A model generated the notes under the pieces. That model was not told the origin of the DNA. It saw nothing but the letters and a program-made list of their open reading frames with translations, and ran no database searches. From contig CBCXVS010000137.1 of NCBI GenBank assembly GCA_965178525.1, positions 1 through 19,046 on the forward strand: DNA of 19,046 bases, in the 5' to 3' direction. Positions 4,074 to 15,889 of the stretch are shown piece after piece. Made by a program: the position numbers and the translations under genes. This stretch comes from an uncultured bacterium. Lineage in GTDB: Bacteria; Tectomicrobia; Entotheonellia; Entotheonellales; Entotheonellaceae. Position 1 is the first letter of the stretch, and the number at the start of each line of letters is the position of its first letter.

Positions 4074-4400
4074 TGGTATGACTCCTTGATTGCAGCCTCA
4101 TAAATCTCAATAGATCCAGAAATATCTGGGCCTATTAATTCCTGTAAGGACCGAAACAAAACCCAATTTGTATTTTTCCTCTGGAGAATTGCCTCAAGGT
4201 CATTCTGTCCAGGTATTTATACATGCCATGTTGCCTCCGTACGTATGGTTCGCAGAGATCTTGTAAAAAGTAGATCACCCTAACGGTGTTTATGTCCACC
4301 TCAATCACGGCCATGATCCGATCATCGCGTACCGTTTGCGGCACGTTGAGGACGTGTTGGTAGGCGTTCTCAGGTACGTGTCGAGACTGGGTCAGTGCAT

Positions 4401-4428
4401 GCTGAGGACTGAGGTAGAAAAATGACAT
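4401..4428 (-). repeat. Degenerate partial copy of the heptamer-repeat element (~1.5-2 GGACTGA units plus flanking gtcatttttctac).
   Basis: ctgaggactgaggtagaaaaatgac matches the core of the elements at 5555-5600 and 14950-14985 in the same orientation as the 14933-15030 copy. Lies in an AT-rich 540-bp divergent spacer. Confidence 0.4.
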
Positions 4429-5418: not shown

Positions 5419-5523
5419 TATGAAGGGCCATTCCGTTTTCCACTTGTAGACGATTCCCCTTTTGGCAAAGGGGGCGAGGGGGAGAAAGGGAGGCGTTCCG
5501 GTTATCTATGCATAGGAGTTGTC

Positions 5524-5607
5524 ATGCCGCGCCTGCGGCACCCGGAAATAAGGAAAAACGTCTTTTACTCAGTCCTCAGTCCTCAGTCCTCAGTCCTTTT
5601 TTCATAG
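5524..5607 (+). CDS. Candidate upstream/leader ORF, 27 codons (MPRLRHPEIRKNVFYSVLSPQSSVLFS). TAG stop 5605-5607 overlaps the AGGAG SD of the downstream gene.
   Basis: AGGAG + 5 nt + ATG. The ATG lies in the 5' arm of the hairpin. The frame reads through the heptamer repeats and ends in CATAGGAG. The equivalent uORF exists in copy 2. Confidence 0.3.
   Translation: MPRLRHPEIRKNVFYSVLSPQSSVLFS
5569..5596 (+). repeat. Perfect heptanucleotide tandem repeat (TCAGTCC)x4.
   Basis: Read directly. The 14953-14973 copy has 3 units; the 4401-4428 copy has ~2. Confidence 0.95.
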
Positions 5608-5610
5608 GAG

Positions 5611-6228
5611 ATGATGATGGCAACGGCGCCGCGAGACGACCAAGAAGATACCACCATCTACAAAGTCGTGATGAATCACGAAGAACAGTATTCGATCTGG
5701 CCGGCCGACCGCGACAACCCACTTGGCTGGCAGGATGTGGGCAAGAGTGGGCTGAAGCCGGAATGCCTGGATTACATCGAGGAAGTATGGACGGATATGC
5801 GTCCGCTCAGCCTGCGCAAACAGATGGAGGAGGCGGCGCAACGCCCCGCGCCCCCTCCGCCGCCTCCGAGTGAGGAACCCGTGGCCGCTGACAGCCGGAC
5901 GGGCGACTCGCTTGTCGACCGCTTGAGCGAGGGGGACCATGCAGTGGAGGTTGGCCTGCGGCCTGACCGGACGGCGCAAGCCTTCAAAGAGAGTCTCGAC
6001 CGTGACTATGTCCATATCAAGTTCACACAGACCCAGGGCGGCACCGAGTTGGGTGTACGCCTAGACCGGGAACGAAGTGATTTGAGTCAGGCCGATTTTG
6101 AAAGCGCCTCTGGAACCGTGCATGTGGAAGGGGGGCTGACTCTGAACTATGTGTCCGTGCGATGCGTGGCGGATATTGATCTGACGACGCTCAGTGGGCG
6201 GGGCCATCTGGAGCCGGTGGAAGCGTAA
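5611..6228 (+). CDS. MbtH-like domain protein with a Pro-rich linker and an uncharacterised ~105-aa C-terminal domain.
   Basis: Residues ~15-75 carry the MbtH signature ([49 protein letters not shown]), then [12 protein letters not shown], then a domain with no motif I recognise. Three consecutive ATGs at 5611-5619; the third gives 6-nt SD spacing. Stop TAA 6226-6228. Confidence 0.85.
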
Positions 6229-6304: not shown

Positions 6305-6470
6305 CCTGGACAAAATTAGCGACATCGTTTTTCCAGAGGAAAAATATGAATTTAATTCTGTTCGGGCACTTAGGCGACATTTCCCGCCGGCTCTGTCCGC
6401 GTTCCTTCTATTGTGCTGTACTGAGCCAACGTATGTGGGGAGAGGCTGGGAGTTCGGGAGGGCAGGGAAG

Positions 6471-7256
6471 ATGCTCATCAGCGGTGCCTGCGTTGCTGCC
6501 GGGATCATGTATGCGGGACTCAAAACCTTGATCAGGCAGCGATCGCAACGAAAAGCGGCTAGGATTATTACGCAAAATGGTCAGGCCAACCAGACATCCT
6601 CGCCCGTGATCGAGGAAGATCGCCACCAGGAGATCGAGGTCCAGCTCTCTCGCGCCTGTGCGATTTCCTCAATTGCTGTAGGTTTATCGATCGTCAGTGC
6701 GTTCGGTTACCCCTTGTTCGGCGTCCTCAGCGCACCTCTCACGGTGTATGGCGCGATTCCCGCCTTCGAACAAGCCTCCGCTGCCATGCTCACCGAAAAT
6801 CGAAAATATATGTCGGTCGTGTGGTCCGCAGTTGTCATTGGCTCCCTCGCCACTGGGCGTTTCTTTTCGGCCGCAGTCCTTACCTGGCTCGATGATTTTG
6901 TCGTCCTGTGGTCCAATCGTTTGTCTTTGTTCAACAAACTCATTGTGGGCGAATTGGAACATCGCTACCAGCTCCTCACCCAACTCTACGGCGTCAAGCC
7001 CGCGTCCGTCTGGGTGCTGGTCGATGACGTGGGGCTCGAGATTCCTTTCTCGGAATTGCAAGTCGGTGATACGGTGGTAATGAGTACAAAAGAAGTGATT
7101 CCCGTCAGGGGTACGGTTGTCGACGGCACCGCGAGAGTCGTCCGGTGGCGGCCGGGCGGAAATGGACAACCCGAGAACAAAGAGATAGGGGATCAGGTTA
7201 CGGCCTCGACCTTGATCCTATCGGGGAGTATTAAAGTGCAAGTGGAAAGTCTCTGA
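6471..7256 (+). CDS. N-terminal fragment of a P1B-type (heavy-metal) P-type ATPase: transmembrane helices plus an actuator (A) domain. TGES motif degenerate (RPGGNG); no phosphorylation/nucleotide-binding domains. Possible pseudogene or repurposed truncated protein.
   Basis: A-domain signature LEIPFSELQVGDTVVMSTKEVIPVRGTVVDGTARV...ASTLILSGSIKVQV matches the CopA/ZntA actuator domain. Ends at TGA 7254-7256 with no DKTGT downstream in any frame. ATG 6471 is preceded by a purine-rich SD (gggagggcagggaag); the ORF-track start is an upstream TTG at 6411. Confidence 0.7.
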   Translation: MLISGACVAAGIMYAGLKTLIRQRSQRKAARIITQNGQANQTSSPVIEEDRHQEIEVQLSRACAISSIAVGLSIVSAFGYPLFGVLSAPLTVYGAIPAFEQASAAMLTENRKYMSVVWSAVVIGSLATGRFFSAAVLTWLDDFVVLWSNRLSLFNKLIVGELEHRYQLLTQLYGVKPASVWVLVDDVGLEIPFSELQVGDTVVMSTKEVIPVRGTVVDGTARVVRWRPGGNGQPENKEIGDQVTASTLILSGSIKVQVESL

Positions 7257-7641: not shown

Positions 7642-8166
7642 TTATCTCTTGTGCATGATCGCCACGGGAGGCGGTTGAAAATCACGTGGCCACTGTGTCC
7701 TGTCCGTGTAGTGAGCGCCTTGCAAATCAGTCGATGCCTCGCCTTCCGTTGTGGTCAAGACCGCGTTGCTAAGATTGGCTCTGTGTAGTCTGGCGCCGTT
7801 CAAGAGGGCGTGTTTCAGGTTCGCACGGACCAACGTGGCAAAATCCAGACACCCGCCGCTGAGCATGGCTGCCGAGAGATCAGCGCCACTGAGATTGGCC
7901 TGGGTCAGATGGGCCCCTGACAGGCTGGCATGTACCATGGCGTCCACCAAATGGGCACGAATCAAGTTAGCGCCTGACAAATTGGCGCCCGACAAATTGG
8001 CGCTGCTCAAGTTAATCGAACGCAAATCCGCACCACGCAAATCCGCACCGCTCTGCTGCGTGGACGGCTCGCCCAGGTTGGCGCCCGAGAGATTGGCGCC
8101 AACCAGGTTGGCTCCTACCAAAAGTTGGCATGCATCAATTGCGCGCCGCTCAGGTTCACGCCCCAC
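7642..8166 (-). CDS. Pentapeptide-repeat protein, C-terminal portion. Likely the 3' part of a single gene with 8115-8786, disrupted by a 1-nt frameshift.
   Basis: Tandem A(N/D)LxG pentapeptide units. GTG start at 8166 overlaps the upstream ORF by 52 nt and has a stop 9 codons upstream in frame. Inserting one nt after AAC (~8122) fuses the frames into a continuous array ...MHANLLVGANLVGANLSGANL. Contains 15-nt tandem duplications at 7976-8005 and 8021-8049. Confidence 0.7.
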   Translation of the reverse strand: MGREPERRAIDACQLLVGANLVGANLSGANLGEPSTQQSGADLRGADLRSINLSSANLSGANLSGANLIRAHLVDAMVHASLSGAHLTQANLSGADLSAAMLSGGCLDFATLVRANLKHALLNGARLHRANLSNAVLTTTEGEASTDLQGAHYTDRTQWPRDFQPPPVAIMHKR

Positions 8167-8786
8167 AATGCCGCCCCAATCAGACGCACGCTATTCATGA
8201 CCGCTGCCCTGAGGTTGACGTTCGTGAGATTGACGCGCGTGAGAATCGTTCCGGTCAGGTCGGCGCCCGAGAGGTCAGCGCCATCGAGAATCGCTGCTGC
8301 CAAGTTGGCGTCTCGTAAATCGGCGCCAACGAATTTGGCTCGCGATAGGTTGGTTCTCACCAGGTCCGCGCCGCGTAGATTCGCCCCCGAGAGATCGGCG
8401 CCCGAGAGGTCGCTGCCCCGAAGGCGTGCCTGGGACAATAAGGCTCTGCTAAGATTGGCGTTACGGAGATCTAGGCCGCTTAACTCTCTCCCGCGTAGAT
8501 TGACGCCGATGCACGTCGGAGGACACCCGGCTGGCAAGGCGGCAGACTGGCACCCCGCCACGATGGCCAGGAGCGTCGCCATCGCCATGACCGGCCGGCA
8601 CACGTAAAGCGCCAGTTTGAGGGCCACAAGGTTTACAACATCAAGGTAAACAGGTGGCCACTCGGCGGTACGCCGTACGATGGCGATCAATCCTTGTAGA
8701 TGCGCCGGCGGCATAGGGACGCCGTTGTTGTCCATGACCTCTTGCCTCTCGGGGAACGGTGGCGGCGGTTTAAGGCGGCGGCGCAT
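8115..8786 (-). CDS. Membrane-anchored pentapeptide-repeat protein, N-terminal portion of the probable fused gene. TM helix, then a CPPTC-IGVNLRGR motif, then the repeat array.
   Basis: Paralogous to 8887-9807 (shared TM + CxPxCxGxNLRGR + pentapeptide architecture). Start uncertain: ATG 8786 lacks an SD; internal ATG 8735 (MDNNGV) is an alternative. Stop TAG 8115-8117. Confidence 0.75.
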   Translation of the reverse strand: MRRRLKPPPPFPERQEVMDNNGVPMPPAHLQGLIAIVRRTAEWPPVYLDVVNLVALKLALYVCRPVMAMATLLAIVAGCQSAALPAGCPPTCIGVNLRGRELSGLDLRNANLSRALLSQARLRGSDLSGADLSGANLRGADLVRTNLSRAKFVGADLRDANLAAAILDGADLSGADLTGTILTRVNLTNVNLRAAVMNSVRLIGAALWGVNLSGAQLMHANFW

Positions 8787-8886
8787 GCATCCGGAGAGCC
8801 GGGGGCAAGCGGGTCATGGCATCCACATGGATGCCTCGCGTCTCGGCCTGACGACACACCTTGCTCCGTTGCTGCGGATTTAAGCC

Positions 8887-9807
8887 TTACAACACCGGAT
8901 CCAGTCCCAAATGGTAACACTCATGCTGTGAGACGAAGACGCGAACTGCCGTGAGATCTGCCGACCTCAAGTCAACGCTGTGGAGGACGGCGCCGACTAA
9001 CAGCGCGCCGATTAAGTTGGTTTTATACAGGTTGGCAGACGCCAATGTGCTCCCGGCCAAGCTCGCGCCGGCGAGGTTGGCCTGCGTCAAGTCCGCTCCC
9101 GTCAGGTTGGCAAGGTTCAGCCATGCCCCCGAGAGATCGGCTTTGGTTAAGCGGCTGCCGCTTAAATCGGCTCGGCTCAGGCGACTCCCGCTCAATGTGG
9201 CTTCCCGCAAATCTGCCCCGATCAGACGTGCCGCGACCAGTTCAACCCCTGAGAGGTTGGCGCCACGCAAAAGCGCTTGGGTCACATCCGCCCCGTTGAG
9301 GATGACGCCGTCAAGTCGCACTTGCGTTAAGTCAAGCCCCGCCAAGTCGGCACGAATCAGGCGCGCGCCGCGCATATCGGCGCCACGCAGGATGGCTCCA
9401 CCCAAGTCCGCATCCGTCAAATCCGTCCCGAGCAGGGTGGCCTCTGTCAAGTCCGCATGTTTTAGATTCGCGCCAATGAGGCTGGCGCCTGAAAAATCCG
9501 CCGCGATCAGTTTGGTCGCACTCAGATCCGCCCGGCGCAAATTCGCTTCGATGAAGCCGGTTCCGCTCAAATCGAGACCATGCAAGTTGCGGCCTCTCAG
9601 ATTCATACCGACACAGTCCGGGGAGCATCGAACCGTGTGCACGATCCAAGAGCGTGCCACAAGAATCATGGCGCCGACAAGCGCCAGGGCGATAGCAATC
9701 CGAAGGTAGAGCATGCGTTTTAAAGTCGCACCCGATTGACCCAGCAGTATGGTACAGAGAACAATCAAGCCGACGAGAGCCGAGAGGATCACGGGTATAT
9801 GTATCAT
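8887..9807 (-). CDS. Membrane-anchored pentapeptide-repeat protein (two N-terminal TM helices, CSPDC-VGMNLRGR motif, ~40 pentapeptide units).
   Basis: 306-aa ORF. AGGAG immediately abuts ATG 9807 (0-nt spacing), so the start is somewhat uncertain. Stop TAA 8887-8889. Confidence 0.85.
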   Translation of the reverse strand: MIHIPVILSALVGLIVLCTILLGQSGATLKRMLYLRIAIALALVGAMILVARSWIVHTVRCSPDCVGMNLRGRNLHGLDLSGTGFIEANLRRADLSATKLIAADFSGASLIGANLKHADLTEATLLGTDLTDADLGGAILRGADMRGARLIRADLAGLDLTQVRLDGVILNGADVTQALLRGANLSGVELVAARLIGADLREATLSGSRLSRADLSGSRLTKADLSGAWLNLANLTGADLTQANLAGASLAGSTLASANLYKTNLIGALLVGAVLHSVDLRSADLTAVRVFVSQHECYHLGLDPVL

Positions 9808-9872
9808 CTCCTGTCTCTTCAGTTCGATGGCGCATGCATTCGTGTCACCTTCAGGGTAGGGGATACACCTTC

Positions 9873-9900
9873 CACACGTCCGGCAACTGCCGGGCGTGTG
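9873..9900. other. 12-bp-stem hairpin (CACACGTCCGGC aact GCCGGGCGTGTG; one position is a G.U wobble on the plus strand and an A/C mismatch on the minus strand) in the intercistronic gap between the 252-aa gene and the first pentapeptide gene.
   Basis: Read directly. No U-tract in either orientation, so likely a regulatory or stabilising hairpin rather than a canonical terminator. Confidence 0.3.
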
Positions 9901-9971
9901 AGTCTATCATACGTACGGGTTGGAGGGACGAGGCTGATTGATGTAGACGAATTCGGCGTCGTTATCGTGTC

Positions 9972-10730
9972 TTAGCTCTCCGATTGGGATGCTGCTGTGG
10001 ACGGTGACACGGCTGCCGGCCCTTGTCCCACTTCCTGCAGTGCCCGCTTGAATGCCTCGTTGTCTTTTTCGGCGACCTCGTCGATCGCCCGCAAGATGAG
10101 TTGTGGCTTCTCGTTTGTTGGCACGGCATCGTAATCCGACAGCGTCACGGACGTCAAATTATTCTCCACGAGTCTGACGAAAAGTGCTTGCCCAAAGGCT
10201 TGATTCCGCCTGCTGTCCGGATTGCGCTCAAATGCCAGGAGTTGCTTGTAAACATTCAGGTCATACTGCGATACGGCCGCTTGCTGGCAGGCCCAGCAAT
10301 ACTGCAACACCACCTGACTCATATCTTGCGCCAGTTGAGGATTTTTGTTGAGTTTGCCCTCCACTAATTCCCCAAGTTCAAAGCCCATATCTGAACAGAA
10401 TATCGCTAAGTGGTCGGTGAAGGCCTGAAGGCTGTTCTCAGAGAGCGACGCGATCCAATTTCTCACGTCCTCATTGGCTGCAGGCGCATTGGCGACCCAC
10501 GTGTGAAACTGCTGCGGTAACTCGGCGGATTGCCGGTTCATCACTTTATCGTACCAGCCTTGGAGCCAACTCGTCCCGGCCTCAATACCACTGCTGATCG
10601 TTTCTTGTATCGGCTCGGTCATGGACCCCCAGGTCGGTAGTTGCTCCTGCTTCTGCAAACGCCTATCCACGACGATGGACGCCGCCCCAACGACGACCGC
10701 GAGAAGGGCCAGAGGGACAAGTACCATCAT
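9972..10730 (-). CDS. Hypothetical protein with an N-terminal TM anchor and a ~230-aa helical soluble domain of unknown function.
   Basis: 252-aa ORF. AAGGAG SD 4-7 nt upstream of a tandem ATGATG. Start overlaps (ATGA) the stop of the 30-codon upstream ORF. Stop TAA 9972-9974. Confidence 0.75.
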   Translation of the reverse strand: MMVLVPLALLAVVVGAASIVVDRRLQKQEQLPTWGSMTEPIQETISSGIEAGTSWLQGWYDKVMNRQSAELPQQFHTWVANAPAANEDVRNWIASLSENSLQAFTDHLAIFCSDMGFELGELVEGKLNKNPQLAQDMSQVVLQYCWACQQAAVSQYDLNVYKQLLAFERNPDSRRNQAFGQALFVRLVENNLTSVTLSDYDAVPTNEKPQLILRAIDEVAEKDNEAFKRALQEVGQGPAAVSPSTAASQSES

Positions 10731-10819
10731 TCGTCTCCTTTTCTGAAGAACTTCCTATCCACGGCGATCGACCCGATCGTTGCCACAATGCATACAAGCA
10801 GCACAGATAGGATTCCCAT
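10727..10819 (-). CDS. Small hydrophobic peptide, 30 aa (MGILSVLLVCIVATIGSIAVDRKFFRKGDE), translationally coupled to the downstream 252-aa gene.
   Basis: Perfect AGGAGG (rc of 10825-10830) + 5 nt + ATG 10819. One TM-length hydrophobic stretch plus a basic tail. TGA stop overlaps the ATG of the next gene. Not in the ORF track (<60 aa). Confidence 0.45.
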   Translation of the reverse strand: MGILSVLLVCIVATIGSIAVDRKFFRKGDE

Positions 10820-10867
10820 AAAAACCTCCTTTAGTTTTTCGGCACGGGGAAACGACCCTCACCCCAA

Positions 10868-10891
10868 CTCTCTCCCTCGCCAGGGAGAGGG
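10868..10891 (-). other. GC-rich hairpin (8-10-bp stem CTCTCCCT cgcc AGGGAGAG) 58 nt downstream of the SPFH stop. Possible attenuator or partial terminator.
   Basis: Read directly. No adjacent U-tract. Confidence 0.3.
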
Positions 10892-10948
10892 GGTAAAATT
10901 GATGCCCAGGTACTTCGTTCCCTTTTCACGCTAAGAGCCCCTCGCCAT

Positions 10949-12028
10949 CTACGGAGGCGGTCTTGATGTCATCAAGTCGGGCGATGAGGCATCCATCGAC
11001 AGCGGCCGTTGTCTGCCGTCATGTTCATCTAGTTTCGGGAGGGGCAGGATCAACGGCGTGTGACTGGGTACCAGTATGGCGTGCAGCTTTGGTGACAACT
11101 TCTCAATATATTGATAGGTCAACAAATTGGGATTTTGTTCCAGCGCTTTTGCGATCAATGCTAAGGCATCCGCTTGGCCTTCGGCCTCGATTTTGATCGC
11201 GTCCTTTCGGCCTGCAGCCATGTTGCGCATCTGTTGGGCTTTATGTAGCGCTTCCTCCTTTCCTTCTAAGGCAATTTGTTTGCGCTCAATCGACTCGGCA
11301 TACTCCGCTGTAAAGGTAACATCACGAAGGAGGACCTGGTCCAGAATGAAACCTCTGTTCGCAAATTCTGTCCGCAAGATCCGATCGAGCGTGGTTTCTA
11401 GGTCTCTGAGGTCCGAACTATTGACTTCTCGCACGGTAAATTGTGAGACTTGCGTGCGGACGAAGCCCCGCGTCACCGGTCGTACCAGATCGACGATATA
11501 ACGGTTTTGCCAGTCCGTATGTACCGAAACGGCCTGTTCGGTGTCAACACGGAAGATGACCGAGCAATCCAGGCGTACTTCTTGGCCATCGCTGGTGCGG
11601 GCCCGGATCGAATCATCACCCAGCTCCGCCCCTTCGGCAGGTCTGCCAGACATGGTATAGGTTTGCCAGTAGATGGGATACGAGACATCACGCTCGAGAA
11701 AAGGCAGAATCCAATGCAACCCGGCTCGTAACGGCTGTGGCCGGATGCCGCCTGGAGAGACGAGAGAGACGACCACCGCCACGTAGGGGGGTTGCACAAA
11801 AACCAGGGCGGCGCTGAGTAGACTAATGCCAAGGATCAACAAAAACGGCAGCATGACGCGAGAGGAAAGCAACCGCAGAATACCGAAACGAACCCCCTGT
11901 CGCCACCCGGTGGCGATACACATGTAGATCGCATATATTGCAAAGAGCCACCATAAGATGACGGTGGTATATCCCAACAGTGTATCGAATGTGGTGATGG
12001 TGAAGGAGCCTGTCCCTTGCATAGGCAC
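10949..12028 (-). CDS. SPFH/band-7 domain membrane protein (stomatin/prohibitin/HflK-C family).
   Basis: Two N-terminal TM helices followed by an SPFH domain (…QVSQFTVREVNSSDLRDLETTLDRILRTEFANRGFILDQVLLRDVTFTAEYAESIERKQIALEGKEEALHKAQ…). GTG 12028 or ATG 12022 start. Stop TAG 10949-10951. Confidence 0.88.
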   Translation of the reverse strand: MPMQGTGSFTITTFDTLLGYTTVILWWLFAIYAIYMCIATGWRQGVRFGILRLLSSRVMLPFLLILGISLLSAALVFVQPPYVAVVVSLVSPGGIRPQPLRAGLHWILPFLERDVSYPIYWQTYTMSGRPAEGAELGDDSIRARTSDGQEVRLDCSVIFRVDTEQAVSVHTDWQNRYIVDLVRPVTRGFVRTQVSQFTVREVNSSDLRDLETTLDRILRTEFANRGFILDQVLLRDVTFTAEYAESIERKQIALEGKEEALHKAQQMRNMAAGRKDAIKIEAEGQADALALIAKALEQNPNLLTYQYIEKLSPKLHAILVPSHTPLILPLPKLDEHDGRQRPLSMDASSPDLMTSRPPP

Positions 12029-12149
12029 AGCTATCTCTAATGGCTTTGGTTATCGAGGAGAAGCCGTATTGGCGCGGCCGATGAGATACATCACCAACGG
12101 TGCGGAAACTATGGTTATACGTCAATATATGTGGCTCTAAGCCCAAGCT

Positions 12150-12177
12150 ATTATAGAGACCACTTCGCATAAGTCAA
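12150..12177 (-). promoter_or_regulatory. Near-consensus sigma70 promoter on the minus strand: -35 TTGACT (rc of 12172-12177), 16-nt spacer, -10 TATAAT (rc of 12150-12155), oriented toward the SPFH gene.
   Basis: Hexamers and spacing read directly. ~115-nt leader to start 12028. Striking in a GC-rich genome. Confidence 0.45.
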
Positions 12178-12220
12178 GGGCAATCGTAAACTTGAATACG
12201 TTGCTGCAGCGCCGAACACA

Positions 12221-13330
12221 CTACGAGGTTGGACTCGCTTTGTTACTGTAGCGCTTCTGCCATTCGTGCAGAAGGCGGCGGCGATTCGCCGATGCCCATG
12301 GCACGTCTGTGCCGAACCGCCGCTCTGCCGCCGCCTCGGGAACGCCTTTGGGATGGGGGACATCCGTCTTCATGGCCGTGACGGCATGGTATTTCCAGTC
12401 GACTCGCATGGCACGCGCACTGAGGGTCCAGTCGAGAAAGGTCATCGCGGCGGGTTTGATGCGGGGGGTTTTGAGTAGGGCGCTAGCCGCTATGTCCCAA
12501 GCCGCGCCCTCGGCGGGAAAGACGATGTCAATCGGCGCCTCCTGGTGGTTTTCGATGATCGCTATGCCGGCACCGCCATACGAAATCCCGATGGGGACAT
12601 CCCCGCTTGCGGCCAACTGGCAGGGCTTTTCGGAGGAGGGGAGGTACTGCGCGATATTCTGATGCAACGCATCGAGAAAGACCCAGCCCTTGGCCTCTCC
12701 CAGATGATGTAGGATCGCCGCCATCACGAGGTAGCCGATCTTGGATACGGTAGGATTCGGCATGACGATATGCCCGCGATAGTCTGGCTTGATCAAATCT
12801 TGCCAGGACAAAGGCACGTCCGCGTCACGCTTCGCCGTCTTGTTCTTCAAGGCATCGGAATTGACGCAAAAGGCCGACATCCGCACCTGCATACCGACCC
12901 AATACGGTGGGGTATGGGTATCCCGGAACAGCGGGGGCACATCCGCAAGCCCCTTGGGCGCGTAGGGGCGGAGCATGCCGTGCCATTCCAGGAGCATCAA
13001 AAAGGTCGCGGATACGCCCCACATCACGTCGGCTTGCAGCGTGTTGCGCTCGGCATACAACCGCTTCACGAGCGTGTCAGATGAGGCTTCGGTGACGACG
13101 GTGACGTCGATCTTGGGATAGGTGGCGCGAAATGTTGCCAGATCATGTGCGAGCCGGTCAGAGTGCCGCGCCGTATAGACAGTGATCGTCCCCGCCTCAG
13201 GTGAGTTGGGTTCGTGGCGTGTGCAGCCACCCGCCGTGATCAGGATGACGAACGCGACCGCACGCACCAGGACGCTATACATCGACGATCTCGCGCCCCT
13301 GGCGGCGCCAGAGGCAACACATCCGGGCAT
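12221..13330 (-). CDS. ABC-transporter substrate-binding protein, family 1 (FbpA/AfuA-like Fe3+-, thiamin- or 2-AEP-type); probable lipoprotein.
   Basis: Signal/lipobox-like N-terminus (…VAFVILITAGGC), then ITVYTARHSDRLAHDL…ADVMWGV, typical of this family. Start ATG 13330 is 3 nt after the upstream gene's stop; alternative ATG 13282. Confidence 0.8.
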   Translation of the reverse strand: MPGCVASGAARGARSSMYSVLVRAVAFVILITAGGCTRHEPNSPEAGTITVYTARHSDRLAHDLATFRATYPKIDVTVVTEASSDTLVKRLYAERNTLQADVMWGVSATFLMLLEWHGMLRPYAPKGLADVPPLFRDTHTPPYWVGMQVRMSAFCVNSDALKNKTAKRDADVPLSWQDLIKPDYRGHIVMPNPTVSKIGYLVMAAILHHLGEAKGWVFLDALHQNIAQYLPSSEKPCQLAASGDVPIGISYGGAGIAIIENHQEAPIDIVFPAEGAAWDIAASALLKTPRIKPAAMTFLDWTLSARAMRVDWKYHAVTAMKTDVPHPKGVPEAAAERRFGTDVPWASANRRRLLHEWQKRYSNKASPTS

Positions 13331-13333
13331 CTC

Positions 13334-14932
13334 CTATGGGTCTATCCACACACTATGGTAGCTTCCGTTATCGTATCCCGTCGGCGCCGGCACCCAGCCT
13401 TTCAACTTCTTGGCCATGAACCAGGGGCCGGTCGGCCAGCCCAAGGTCACGATGGGCGTCGCGCCCTTCAAGATACGGCGCTGATACGCGTGAAAGATCG
13501 CCTGACGTTTGCTCTCATCAAGCGCACGCAACCCCTGTTCGTGCAATTGATCGAGTTCAGGCATCTGCAGCTTGCCGTAATTCCGTGGGGCATTTGACGT
13601 CCAGGTAAACGAAAACAGCGTACTTGGATCCATCATAATCAACCCCGTTCCCTGCACCCCGATCATGGTAAAATCGCCCCGGGCCCAAGCGGCAAAGCCG
13701 GCGGCGCTTTCCCAGGTCCGAAGGTTGGCTCGGATGCCGATCGGCTTCAACTGTTGGATGACCAAAGAGGCCACATCCACGTAGTTTCCCACGGAGCGTA
13801 CGGCGACTTCAATATCCAGGCCATCGGGATAGTGCTTGGCCACGAGGCGTTTGGCTTCGGCAATATCCGGGCCTTTGGGCTGCCGACAGCCAGGCGCTTG
13901 CAAGACTTCTTCTTTGGGGAGGGCATAGTCGCCAAACACTTCTGATGGCATAATCACACACGGTACAATAAACCCATCATATGCTCTGGCGGCAATCTCC
14001 TGGCGATCGATTGCCAGGTAGACGGCCCAACGCATCTCTGGATTGTCGAACGGGGGTTTGGTGCTATTCATATGGATCTGCGAGATACCCCCAGGGCCGG
14101 ATTGCTGATACTGCAGATCCTTGCGGGCCTTGCGGATCTCTTCGATTTGCTTGCTATTGAGCGGCGGCCAGCCATACCAGAAATCGACTTTCCCAGCCTT
14201 AATCGCCGCGATTTGCGTGGCGCGCGACGTGATGATGTACTGCTTGACGCCATCCAAATAGGGCATGCCCTGAATGAAGTAGTTGGGATTACGCTCCCAC
14301 TCGATGATATTGCCACGGACGTATTTCTTCAACTTGAACGGTCCCGTGCCAATCTGACTATCCGGCTGGGTCAGATCGCCGTCGCGTTCCAGAATATGCT
14401 TGGGTAGGATCTTGCACCACGCCGAGGCCAGAGCCGACAGGATAATCAGATTGGGGAACTTGAGCTGCACGATCACGGTAAAATCGTCCGGCGCTTCCAC
14501 GCGCTCGATCATCGGACGCAGCATGGAACCGCATCGCGGGCTGCGGAATTCCGGATCGAGCATCCGTTGCAAACTGTATACGGCATCGGCCGACGTGAAG
14601 GCGGCCCCATCATGCCATTTGACGCCCCGGCGCAGATGGAAGGTATAGACCGTGCCGTCATCCGAAACCTCCCAGCGCTCGGCGAGATCCGGGCTGACCG
14701 TCTTGGGTTTTTCCGGACCCCATTGCAGCAAACCGCTGTAGAGCCCAACCACCGATTGCGACACGGCAAGTGGCGTCTCGGTATGCAGGTCCAGACGCGC
14801 CGGGTCGGCATAATTGAACCAGTTCAAGATGCCGCCGCGTTTCGGTGTGTCCTCTCCCCGGGCACTTCCGAGTCCCAGGGTCCATAGCGCGACGATGCTC
14901 ACGAGAACGACATAGTGCAGATGGCGGCGCAT
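13334..14932 (-). CDS. ABC-transporter substrate-binding protein, family 5 (DppA/OppA/NikA-like peptide/nickel/metallophore type); secreted.
   Basis: Signal peptide MRRHLHYVVLVSIVALWTLGLGSA, then GGILNWFNYADPARLDLH…LYSGLLQW (SBP_bac_5 pattern); 532 aa. AGGAGG + 5 nt + ATG 14932. Stop TAG 13334-13336. Confidence 0.9.
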   Translation of the reverse strand: MRRHLHYVVLVSIVALWTLGLGSARGEDTPKRGGILNWFNYADPARLDLHTETPLAVSQSVVGLYSGLLQWGPEKPKTVSPDLAERWEVSDDGTVYTFHLRRGVKWHDGAAFTSADAVYSLQRMLDPEFRSPRCGSMLRPMIERVEAPDDFTVIVQLKFPNLIILSALASAWCKILPKHILERDGDLTQPDSQIGTGPFKLKKYVRGNIIEWERNPNYFIQGMPYLDGVKQYIITSRATQIAAIKAGKVDFWYGWPPLNSKQIEEIRKARKDLQYQQSGPGGISQIHMNSTKPPFDNPEMRWAVYLAIDRQEIAARAYDGFIVPCVIMPSEVFGDYALPKEEVLQAPGCRQPKGPDIAEAKRLVAKHYPDGLDIEVAVRSVGNYVDVASLVIQQLKPIGIRANLRTWESAAGFAAWARGDFTMIGVQGTGLIMMDPSTLFSFTWTSNAPRNYGKLQMPELDQLHEQGLRALDESKRQAIFHAYQRRILKGATPIVTLGWPTGPWFMAKKLKGWVPAPTGYDNGSYHSVWIDP

Positions 14933-15030
14933 TTACCCCTCCTATGAGAAAAGGACTGAGGACTGAGGACTGAGTAAAAGACGTTTTTCCTCATTTCCGG
15001 GCGCCGATGGCCTCGGCATGACGGTTCCTC
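14933..15030 (-). promoter_or_regulatory. Conserved leader element, copy 2 (minus-strand orientation). GAGGA SD, hairpin (GCCGA/TCGGC, 15003-15017), a 25-codon uORF (14942-15019) ending TAG inside the AGGAGG SD, and (TCAGTCC)x3 (plus-strand GGACTGA at 14953-14973).
   Basis: Reverse complement aligns with 5511-5610. Differences are concentrated in the hairpin, where the base-pair changes are compensatory (C-G to A-U, G-C to G.U), and in heptamer copy number. Confidence 0.6.
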
Positions 15031-15112: not shown

Positions 15113-15170
15113 ATGCAAACGCATTTTTGCATCTGCAGAGAGAAATCGCAAGTCTCTATGCTAGACTTGC
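15113..15170. promoter_or_regulatory. Candidate operator sites in the divergent SBP-operon/Uma2 intergenic region: ATGCAAA-n6-TTTGCAT (15113-15132) and a perfect 8-bp inverted repeat GCAAGTCT-n7-AGACTTGC (15148-15170).
   Basis: Inverted repeats read directly. Clustered TGCA/ATGCAT motifs at 15094-15138. Confidence 0.3.
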
Positions 15171-15337: not shown

Positions 15338-15889
15338 GTGCGCACTCAAACTCGGGCGACAATCCAAGACCTTTATCGACTGCCGGACCATGCCAAGGCC
15401 GAACTGGTTAACGGAGAAGTGGTTCTCATGTCGCCGACCGGAGATTTGCCAAGCCGTGCGGGCTTCAACATAACGGTCAGCCTGCGTGCATACGAACGCC
15501 AAACAGGACTGGGCAGAGCCTATCCGGACAACACGGGTTTCCGAGTCCATTTGCCACACCGAGAGTCTTTCAGCCCCGACGCGTCCTTTTATATCGGCCC
15601 GCGCACCGGGGCCAAGTTTCTCGACGGTGCTCCCGTTTTTGCTGCGGAAGTTCGGAGCGAGTCCGATTTTGGCCCGCAGGCCGAGCAGAAGATGGCAGAA
15701 AAGCGTGCGGACTACTTTGCTTTGGGTACGCAGGTGGTCTGGGATGTCGACGTTCTCAGAGAGCATGTCATCCGCGTCTACCGAGCCGATGATCCCACCA
15801 ACCCGACGATTTACCGACTCGGTGAGGCAGCAGAAGCCGAGCCGGCGTTACCTGGCTGGACGATGCTGGTGGCGGAGTTGTTTGATTGA
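15338..15889 (+). CDS. Uma2-family (DUF820) putative restriction-endonuclease-like protein.
   Basis: AELVNGEVVLMSPTGDLPSRAGFNI … PDASFYIGPRTG … PVFAAEVRSESD pattern (PD-(D/E)xK-like) and ~183-aa length typical of Uma2. GTG start 15338 with GAGG 7 nt upstream. Confidence 0.8.
   Translation: MRTQTRATIQDLYRLPDHAKAELVNGEVVLMSPTGDLPSRAGFNITVSLRAYERQTGLGRAYPDNTGFRVHLPHRESFSPDASFYIGPRTGAKFLDGAPVFAAEVRSESDFGPQAEQKMAEKRADYFALGTQVVWDVDVLREHVIRVYRADDPTNPTIYRLGEAAEAEPALPGWTMLVAELFD

Follow-up and report, generated by a model that had tools for sequence, protein, structure and literature searches.

A putative lineage-specific intergenic repeat, derived from a heptamer hairpin, at two ribosome-binding sites of an Entotheonellaceae bacterium

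The window analysed here, a stretch of 19,046 nucleotides from an uncultured bacterium of the Entotheonellaceae (Tectomicrobia; contig CBCXVS010000137.1), contains two copies of a segment of ~95 nt that lie 9.3 kb apart in inverted orientation. Copy 1 (5514-5610, plus strand) is directly 5' of a gene encoding an MbtH-like fusion protein, and copy 2 (15030-14938, minus strand) is directly 5' of a gene encoding a family-5 ATP-binding cassette (ABC) substrate-binding protein (SBP). In both, a Shine-Dalgarno (SD) sequence precedes an ATG and a hairpin of 6 bp, a (CTCAGTC)3-4 array and a T-run follow, and a short upstream open reading frame (uORF) runs from the ATG to a TAG within the SD of the downstream gene. 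A first-pass annotation had read this arrangement as a leader-peptide or translational-coupling attenuator. We favour another explanation, to which we give a probability of about one half, in which the segment would be a lineage-specific intergenic repeat, derived from a heptamer hairpin, that was copied onto two ribosome-binding sites (RBS). The uORF looks like a structural by-product of this event rather than a conserved leader peptide.

The similarity between the two segments is far above chance. A 25-nt core (GGAAATRAGGAAAAACGTCTTTTAC) occurs exactly twice in the window and in none of 200 shuffles, the arms of the inverted repeat are 93-97% identical over ~70 nt, and the sequences flanking the two copies are unrelated. 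No more than two full copies are present within the window, and their divergence is uneven, with seven substitutions and one indel in the 28-nt 5' domain against two substitutions in the next ~70 nt. Re-reading the sequence bore out the first-pass coordinates of the SD-spacer-ATG starts, the 27- and 25-codon uORFs, the TAG in the SD and the 6-bp hairpins. Copy 1 opens with an SD-like AGGAG (5514-5518), part of an octamer CATAGGAG (5511-5518) that matches the native SD context of the MbtH gene in orthologues, and a 5-nt spacer separates it from the ATG at 5524, where a uORF of 27 codons plus TAG (5524-5607, peptide MPRLRHPEIRKNVFYSVLSPQSSVLFS) begins. The 5' hairpin UGCCGC-GCCU-GCGGCA (5525-5540, -10.6 kcal/mol), with a possible 3-bp outer extension (5519-5521 with 5543-5545), is followed by a purine-rich segment GGAAATAAGGAAAAACG and the loop-proximal signature TCTTTTA (together 5544-5567), the (CTCAGTC)x4 array (5568-5595), and a CTTTTTT run joined to a second CATAGGAG (5596-5610, the octamer at 5603-5610), which holds both the TAG of the uORF (5605-5607) and the SD of the main gene (AGGAG, 5606-5610). 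Copy 2, on the minus strand, is laid out in the same order: an SD-like GAGGA (15030-15026), a 6-nt spacer to the ATG at 15019, a uORF of 25 codons plus TAG (15019-14942, peptide MPRPSAPGNEEKRLLLSPQSSVLFS), the hairpin UGCCGA-GGCCA-UCGGCG (15018-15002, -11.9 kcal/mol, with outer CCG/CGG pairs between 15024-15022 and 14999-14997), a purine-rich segment GGAAATGAGGAAAAACG with TCTTTTA (14998-14975) that contains an inner imperfect palindrome UGAGGAAAA/UUUUACUCA, the (CTCAGTC)x3 array (14974-14954), and a CTTTTCT run joined to CATAGGAGG (14953-14938), in which the TAG (14944-14942) overlaps the SD AGGAGG (14943-14938), 5 nt from the ATG of the SBP gene at 14932.

The first line of evidence for a repeat comes from a wider family of heptamer hairpins. 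Searches with the core itself returned little: an 18-mer gave 17 matches among 185,579 species genomes, which equals the chance expectation, and none of them extends past the seed; a 21-mer gave no match in JGI metagenomes and a 20-mer from the 5' part of the core none in viral contigs. The last two heptamers with the T-run (CTCAGTCCTCAGTCCTTTT) were found on at least 120 metagenome contigs (loci L034-L153). Among the matches listed, an opposing GGACTGAGGACTGAG arm lies within 120 nt in 55 of the 117 non-redundant arrays (mean minimum free energy, MFE, of -59 kcal/mol), and these 55 two-armed hairpins are situated mostly behind an ORF or where two ORFs converge. Structures of the form AAAA(GGACTGA)n-loop-(TCAGTCC)nTTTT, of which L138 (807-892), L113 (5554-5647), L131 (684-760) and L056 (1373-1455) are examples, are thus predicted to be bidirectional terminator-like hairpins. 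No Rfam model matches the family. Its carriers, as far as exact protein look-up identified them, are Acidobacteriota (L117, L105) and Desulfobacterota (L054, L066), and L056 carries Acido-Lenti-1 RNA. The contig of L153 has at least 13 tRNA genes in an array (8901-12567), and its heptamer hairpin directly adjoins the 3' end of a tRNA.

A subfamily of these hairpins has the loop-proximal motif (C)GTCTT(T/C)(T/C)AC, as in the window (AAGTCGTCTTCCACTCAGTCC in L138 and GCAGTCTTTTACTCAGTCC in L131 versus AAAACGTCTTTTACTCAGTCC), and the window copies combine this signature with (TCAGTCC)n and a T-run. In L113, GGACTGAGGTAAAAGG...TTTTTTACTCAGTCC aligns to GGAAATGAGGAAAAACG.TCTTTTACTCAGTCC of the window, and since GGACTGAGGTAAAAGG is the purine arm of that hairpin, the purine-rich middle of the window element is best read as a decayed 5' arm; together with TCTTTTA, the segment of copy 1 would be the decayed arm and the loop of a heptamer hairpin. 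The remaining inner palindrome is consistent with this: copy 2 still forms UGAGGAAAA/UUUUACUCA at -9.0 kcal/mol and copy 1 barely does so (-3.8 kcal/mol), and neither copy has two opposing arrays that would make a long stem. Judged by sequence, the array, the T-run and the adjacent CGTCTTTTAC of the window copies belong to the heptamer-hairpin family. A profile built from the two copies matches the family at positions ~35-93 only and, among the matches listed, never at the 5' hairpin and ATG or at the CATAGGAG end (nhmmer). A 5' similarity in L035 (AGGAGTTGTAATG) was judged to be chance, as it falls in the 3'-terminal part of a coding region and has a low posterior probability. What sets the window copies apart from the family is that they lack a real purine arm and cannot form the terminator-like hairpin, that they add a 5' GC hairpin with an ATG and a 3' CATAGGAG, and that they are located at RBSs and not behind ORFs. 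A third, partial heptamer site of two units with a loop-proximal-like signature (GTCATTTTTCTACCTCAGTCCTCAGC, 4400-4424, minus strand) is found at the 5' end of a minus-strand ORF of 97 aa without a Pfam match; on the plus strand it is of the arm type complementary to the array of copy 1, which lies 1.15 kb downstream with a thioesterase gene in between.

Heptameric simple sequence repeats (SSR) are over-represented and unexplained among bacterial intergenic repeats, with GGGGA(C/T)T (complement CCCCAGT) in Nostoc and Calothrix and GGGAATC in Xanthomonas, some of them in inverted pairs (PMC4692102). The window array resembles these cyanobacterial short tandemly repeated repetitive (STRR) sequences and Xanthomonas heptamers, which are likewise tandem 7-nt intergenic units close to gene ends, of variable copy number, in some cases in inverted pairs and of unexplained function (PMC4692102). 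It has at least three tandem 7-nt intergenic units whose number varies between copies (four versus three), its unit CCTCAGT is one nucleotide from the STRR unit CCCCAGT, and L128 mixes both. Unlike the STRR, it has a different unit without G-quadruplex potential, its host phylum is Tectomicrobia, and it is embedded in a 95-nt repeat with a hairpin and SD-like ends. A literature search with the heptamer as a string returned only irrelevant eukaryotic primer matches.

The second line of evidence is the state of the same sites in relatives. The nearest relatives of both downstream proteins are from Candidatus Entotheonella (Tectomicrobia). The SBP (532 aa, 14932-13334, minus strand) is 89% identical to a protein on an 8.0-Mb contig, and the MbtH-like fusion (203 aa, 5617-6228, plus strand) is 80-87% identical to its relatives, including ETSY1_00155 of E. 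factor. In the MbtH-like fusion of the window, a proline-rich linker joins the MbtH domain to a C-terminal domain of ~130 aa with a weak CBF_beta Pfam match; a search returned 3,535 homologues (E<=1e-5), and the best 120 of the 3,535 are all of ~200 aa and include Entotheonella and many metagenome proteins. Five MbtH-fusion homologues (E. factor, L021-L028; L029/L030; L031; L032; L033) and three SBP homologues (L018-L020; L154; L155-L157) were compared at the level of the locus, and the element is absent upstream of every one of them (blastn and nhmmer, ~227 kb of related Entotheonella DNA). Two-unit heptamer arrays are likewise missing from these ~227 kb, as against three sites in the 19-kb window. 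One locus, L031, is confirmed as syntenic, with a thioesterase gene followed by the MbtH-fusion gene, and the gap between the two genes is 76 nt there versus 192 nt in the window. The homologues keep a native start context, (C/T)ATAGGAGG-N5-ATGGC for the MbtH-fusion genes and GAGAAGGAGGAG-N3-ATG for the SBP genes. The element-free spacer of L031 (9925-10000) holds a small inverted pair, CAGTCCG...CGGGACT, made up of single heptamer-like half-units; the pair may have arisen by chance, or it may be what such an element grew from or left behind.

These relatives also bear on the regulatory leader proposed by the first-pass annotation, as the homologous genes lack the whole leader, and related elements elsewhere match the array part only, without ATG and hairpin (nhmmer). 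The annotation had further placed the start of the MbtH-fusion gene at 5611. This probably does not hold: the ORF is open from 5611, and the most likely start is the ATG at 5617, which agrees with the NCBI gene call (P0242, 203 aa) and with the orthologues, which begin MAT..., and gives an SD-to-start spacing of 6 nt. By exact look-up, the protein read from 5617 is on record as part of a 19,046-bp NCBI contig, and neither the version read from 5611 nor the SBP gave a match.

How an insertion of this kind might have produced the features of a leader can be outlined as follows. The 3' two-thirds of the element, GGAAAT.AGGAAAAACG-TCTTTTAC-(TCAGTCC)3-4-TTTT, would be a lopsided derivative of the AAAA(GGACTGA)n-loop-(TCAGTCC)nTTTT palindrome, the purine arm of which may have decayed to about one mutated unit, and for this reason no terminator would form in the window copies. 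Each copy is placed exactly on an RBS, with an SD-like AGGA(G) on both sides (CATAGGAG at 5511-5518 and 5603-5610 for copy 1, AGGA on both sides of copy 2), which could be a target-site duplication or the trace of copying through SD microhomology. Together with the element-free relatives, these flanking pairs make the element look like an insertion or copy event at an RBS that duplicated or used the SD, and either way the host gene would retain a correctly spaced SD (6 and 5 nt). The upstream SD copy would then fall 5-6 nt from the ATG in the conserved 5' end of the repeat (GTCATGCCG), and the end of the repeat, ...TCAT, would supply the TAG once joined to AGGAG. Since the array between them is stop-free, an SD-preceded uORF that stops in the next SD would arise largely by construction. 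What the sequences show is the repeat, its absence in relatives, its kinship with the hairpin family and the lack of a stable regulatory fold; its role is a matter of inference. The repeat would be transcribed within the 5' untranslated region (UTR) and tolerated because the SD is restored at its 3' end; translation of the uORF, if it occurs, would stop 9 nt ahead of the start codon, allowing reinitiation and clearing a weak UCCU-AGGA pairing, so that the insert would do no harm and have no regulatory role. Expression is probably affected little or constitutively, not in response to a signal.

The coding properties of the uORF are in accord with such a by-product. The heptamer array (CTCAGTC)n cycles through CTC AGT CCT CAG TCC TCA GTC in each sense frame and is stop-free in all of them, so that any frame necessarily stays open through it, and across the whole element two of three frames lack a stop in both copies. 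From the ATG, a frame can end at the TAA or TGA in GGAAAT(A/G)AGG, end at the TAG, or run on, and the chance of both uORFs ending at the TAG is 1/3 (given copy 1) to 1/9, which leaves the frame match as suggestive only. The two peptides had been noted to start and end alike, and they do share an MPR start and the heptamer-encoded tail, but nothing else agrees. The invariant nucleotide core CCCGGAAAT.AGGAAAAACGTCTTTTAC reads PEIRKNVFY in copy 1 and PGNEEKRLLL in copy 2; it is translated in different frames, and conservation is therefore at the nucleotide and not at the peptide level. No homologue of the uORF peptides was found among 5.8 billion proteins, and a search for read-through ORFs with both open frames of both copies returned only P0241, a translated heptamer array. 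A leader peptide is therefore not supported, since amino acids are not conserved where nucleotides are and the peptide search found no homologue.

Small non-autonomous intergenic repeats that are co-transcribed with their neighbours are well known in bacteria, among them MITEs, Correia/NEMIS, ERIC and REP/BIME. The window element is like these in being ~100 nt long and non-coding, in showing filled versus empty sites and a short flanking direct repeat, in its predicted position in a 5' UTR and in its internal hairpin. It differs from them in having no terminal inverted repeats, two copies seen, an SD-like duplication of unequal length and no link to a transposase.

Several of these points weigh against the explanation that we favour. 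The flanking duplication measures 8 nt at copy 1 versus 4 nt at copy 2, and CATAGGAG may itself belong to the repeat unit. No terminal inverted repeats are present on a reading of the ends of both copies. The empty site of the SBP gene rests on homologues that are not syntenic, and with two full copies in the visible DNA, a contig of 19,046 bp, a dispersed repeat is not demonstrated. Three further points come from the leader itself: the shared TAG end was kept despite a frame-shifting 1-nt indel and the loss of a 7-nt unit, the uORF stops are exactly 9 nt before the likely main start in both copies (5605-5607 to 5617 and 14944-14942 to 14932), and the 5' hairpin was retained in spite of the uneven divergence, which by chance would happen in 2-11% of cases and hints at some constraint.

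The hairpin deserves closer scrutiny, as compensatory changes had been claimed for it. The double change from C-G to A-U is genuine, while the second change is from U-A to U.G (A5540 versus G15002) and not, as had been stated, from G-C to G.U. The hairpin was thus kept through one double and three one-sided pairing-compatible changes. Simulations at the observed divergence (7 substitutions and 1 indel in 28 nt) retain all six pairs in ~2-11% of cases, the range reflecting the choice of substitution model. Each hairpin has a z of about -1.2, and when these GC-rich 28-mers are shuffled 200 times, 27-29 of the shuffles fold equally well. A consensus fold adds the outer helix of 3 bp, where pairing tolerates both differences, UU versus CC facing GG, and pairs both SDs with the UCCU of the array. 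Together these data suggest that the structure of the 5' hairpin is constrained, which two sequences do not prove, and palindrome-templated mutation at the DNA level could leave the same pattern.

These observations lend support to a translational-coupling leader under selection, in which no peptide would sense anything: a ribosome on the uORF would melt the pairing between UCCU and the main SD, stop 9 nt before the start and reinitiate, with the 5' hairpin over the uORF AUG setting the frequency, and the same module would co-regulate an accessory gene of nonribosomal peptide synthetase (NRPS) systems and an uptake SBP. We regard this as unlikely, though worth serious consideration. The first-pass suggestion of coupling stands in part, as the geometry allows termination-reinitiation: both copies have a good SD (spacing 5-6 nt) and ATG and the same stop-to-start distance, the frame survived the indel and the lost unit, the hairpin was kept with its compatible changes, and the consensus fold engages both SDs. 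It falters on stability and on conservation in orthologues. The leader is missing from all homologous leaders compared, the UCCU-AGGA stems that would hide the SDs amount to -5.4 and -6.2 kcal/mol (z ~0), the whole leader folds at shuffle level (MFE z = -0.1 to -1.1), the main genes own strong SDs that make coupling unnecessary, two sequences give no covariation statistics, and the coincidence of frame has a chance of 1/3 to 1/9.

Leader peptides and uORFs coupled to a downstream gene have well-known examples in ermCL, tnaC, mgtL and trpL. The window copies are like these in having a short SD-preceded leader ORF, a stop within 10 nt of the main start and a hairpin near the uORF start. They are unlike them in lacking a conserved peptide or arrest motif, an alternative terminator and anti-terminator, conservation in orthologues and strong sequestration of the SD. 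A classical attenuator, in which stalling on the peptide or codons of the uORF would switch between terminator and antiterminator or expose the SD, is essentially excluded, even if a short SD-preceded leader ORF with a U-run downstream is what such a system would show. A promoter/terminator scan returned nothing between 5300 and 5700, what precedes the U-run is an unpaired array and no terminator-like hairpin, the leader shows no terminator with a mutually exclusive antiterminator, and its folding energy is that of shuffled sequence. The uORF has no run of regulatory codons and no known arrest motif, its peptide differs across the conserved nucleotide core and is without homologues, and orthologues lack the leader. 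An Rfam scan of the window (E<=1) gave no relevant match, only two spurious ones (mir-1913 and a flavivirus stem-loop). Two weak tandem terminator-like hairpins (15114-15170, minus strand) lie upstream of copy 2 but outside the repeat, within a 300-nt non-coding region that has the SBP gene on one side and a divergent gene of the Uma2 family (15338-15889) on the other.

The array could also act through its length. In a repeat-number switch, the heptamer count (mod 3) would set where the uORF ends, and slippage would produce heritable ON/OFF or graded expression. In both copies only the current number of units (mod 3) ends at the TAG: one more unit leads to an out-of-frame overrun of the main gene by 260-272 nt, and one fewer to a stop at +1 (copy 1) or +31 (copy 2). 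The copies do differ by one unit (four versus three), and there is precedent in the 5' UTR of hmw1A in Haemophilus influenzae, where a heptamer SSR, (ATCTTTC)n, controls expression (PMC12721329). Like the window array, this SSR is a pyrimidine-rich heptamer able to pair with a purine-rich partner, and its repeat number matters for expression (PMC12721329). However, it needs at least 11 units and forms a long hairpin cleaved by RNase III (PMC12721329), and phase-variable tracts are usually much longer than the 3-4 units of the window, which have no stable partner. Moreover, evidence of variation in length is lacking, unit number being the same in eight of eight near-identical metagenome locus pairs of the family, and the main genes have independent SDs. 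Such a switch is improbable on this evidence. Slightly less so, yet still improbable, is a more speculative version in which the repeat is a portable frame-counting module whose unit number (mod 3) would select between coupling (ON), a stop on or just after the start, and an overrun of ~260 nt amounting to occlusion (OFF), with the 5' hairpin gating uORF initiation and the NRPS accessory gene and a peptide- or metallophore-uptake SBP under common control.

A platform for a trans-acting factor, either a CsrA-type protein on GGA motifs or a small RNA (sRNA) with (GGACUGA)n, is very improbable. Each copy does have four GGA motifs (AGGAG, CGGAA, AGGAA, AGGAG), one of them within the SD, but these are outside hairpin loops, nothing here indicates a CsrA in the host, and the two-unit site at 4400-4424 is the only candidate for a complementary sRNA. 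Inspection of the conserved core by eye for sigma-54, sigma-70 and Fur-box motifs gave no convincing match.

The locus around the two copies is, to judge from gene order, rearranged, with an SBP gene separated from its permease genes and a truncated P-type ATPase. In relatives (L154, L155-L157), the SBP gene comes third in an operon, after two permease genes. Its counterpart in the window (13334-14932) has no permease genes nearby, stands opposite the Uma2 gene and is followed by genes for another SBP (12221-13330), which belongs to a different family, and for a Band-7 protein. An N-terminal fragment of a P-type (E1-E2) ATPase (281 aa, TTG start) is encoded at 6411-7256, and the ATPase of E. 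factor has 703 aa and is divergent from the MbtH gene (L021, 7635-9746); the fragment is probably a pseudogene left by rearrangement. A 44-nt inverted repeat (4145-4188 / 6329-6372, 75% complementary) flanks the block of thioesterase gene, element and MbtH-fusion gene, and its 6329-6372 arm resembles a 3'-terminal fragment of the 97-aa ORF (..FSRGKI..). The direct repeats D1-D3, with a period of 15 nt, stem from three minus-strand ORFs for pentapeptide repeats that adjoin or overlap one another (7642-8166, 8115-8786 and 8887-9807, together 7642-9807); the first two, which overlap, may represent a single gene with a frameshift.

This setting raises the possibility that the inverted copies are a by-product or an agent of rearrangement at the DNA level, having arisen as the locus was reshaped or serving to invert the 9.3-kb segment between them and so to swap upstream regions. 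Their inverted orientation at this distance is in keeping with the idea, as are the breaks of synteny at or near both copies (the detached SBP gene, the truncated ATPase and the 44-nt inverted repeat). We nevertheless think it rather doubtful, because the adjacency of thioesterase and MbtH-fusion genes across copy 1 is ancestral (L031), so that copy 1 is not at a breakpoint, and because no contig with the alternative orientation was found. The same ancestral adjacency rules out a composite transposon for the 9.3-kb segment.

The explanation that we favour, an intergenic repeat copied onto two RBSs, has implications beyond this locus. A small repeat that lands on an RBS can mimic a designed leader, complete with SD, uORF and a stop in the SD, which calls for caution when attenuators are called by motif from one genome. 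Furthermore, long terminator-like hairpins made of this one heptamer, GGACTGA/TCAGTCC, occur in two or more other phyla; they are not catalogued in Rfam and, if they are mobile or have a common function, would represent a new and widespread class of intergenic elements. The Entotheonella copies would show such hairpins in the course of decay and of recruitment into the 5' UTRs of genes of secondary metabolism and transport.

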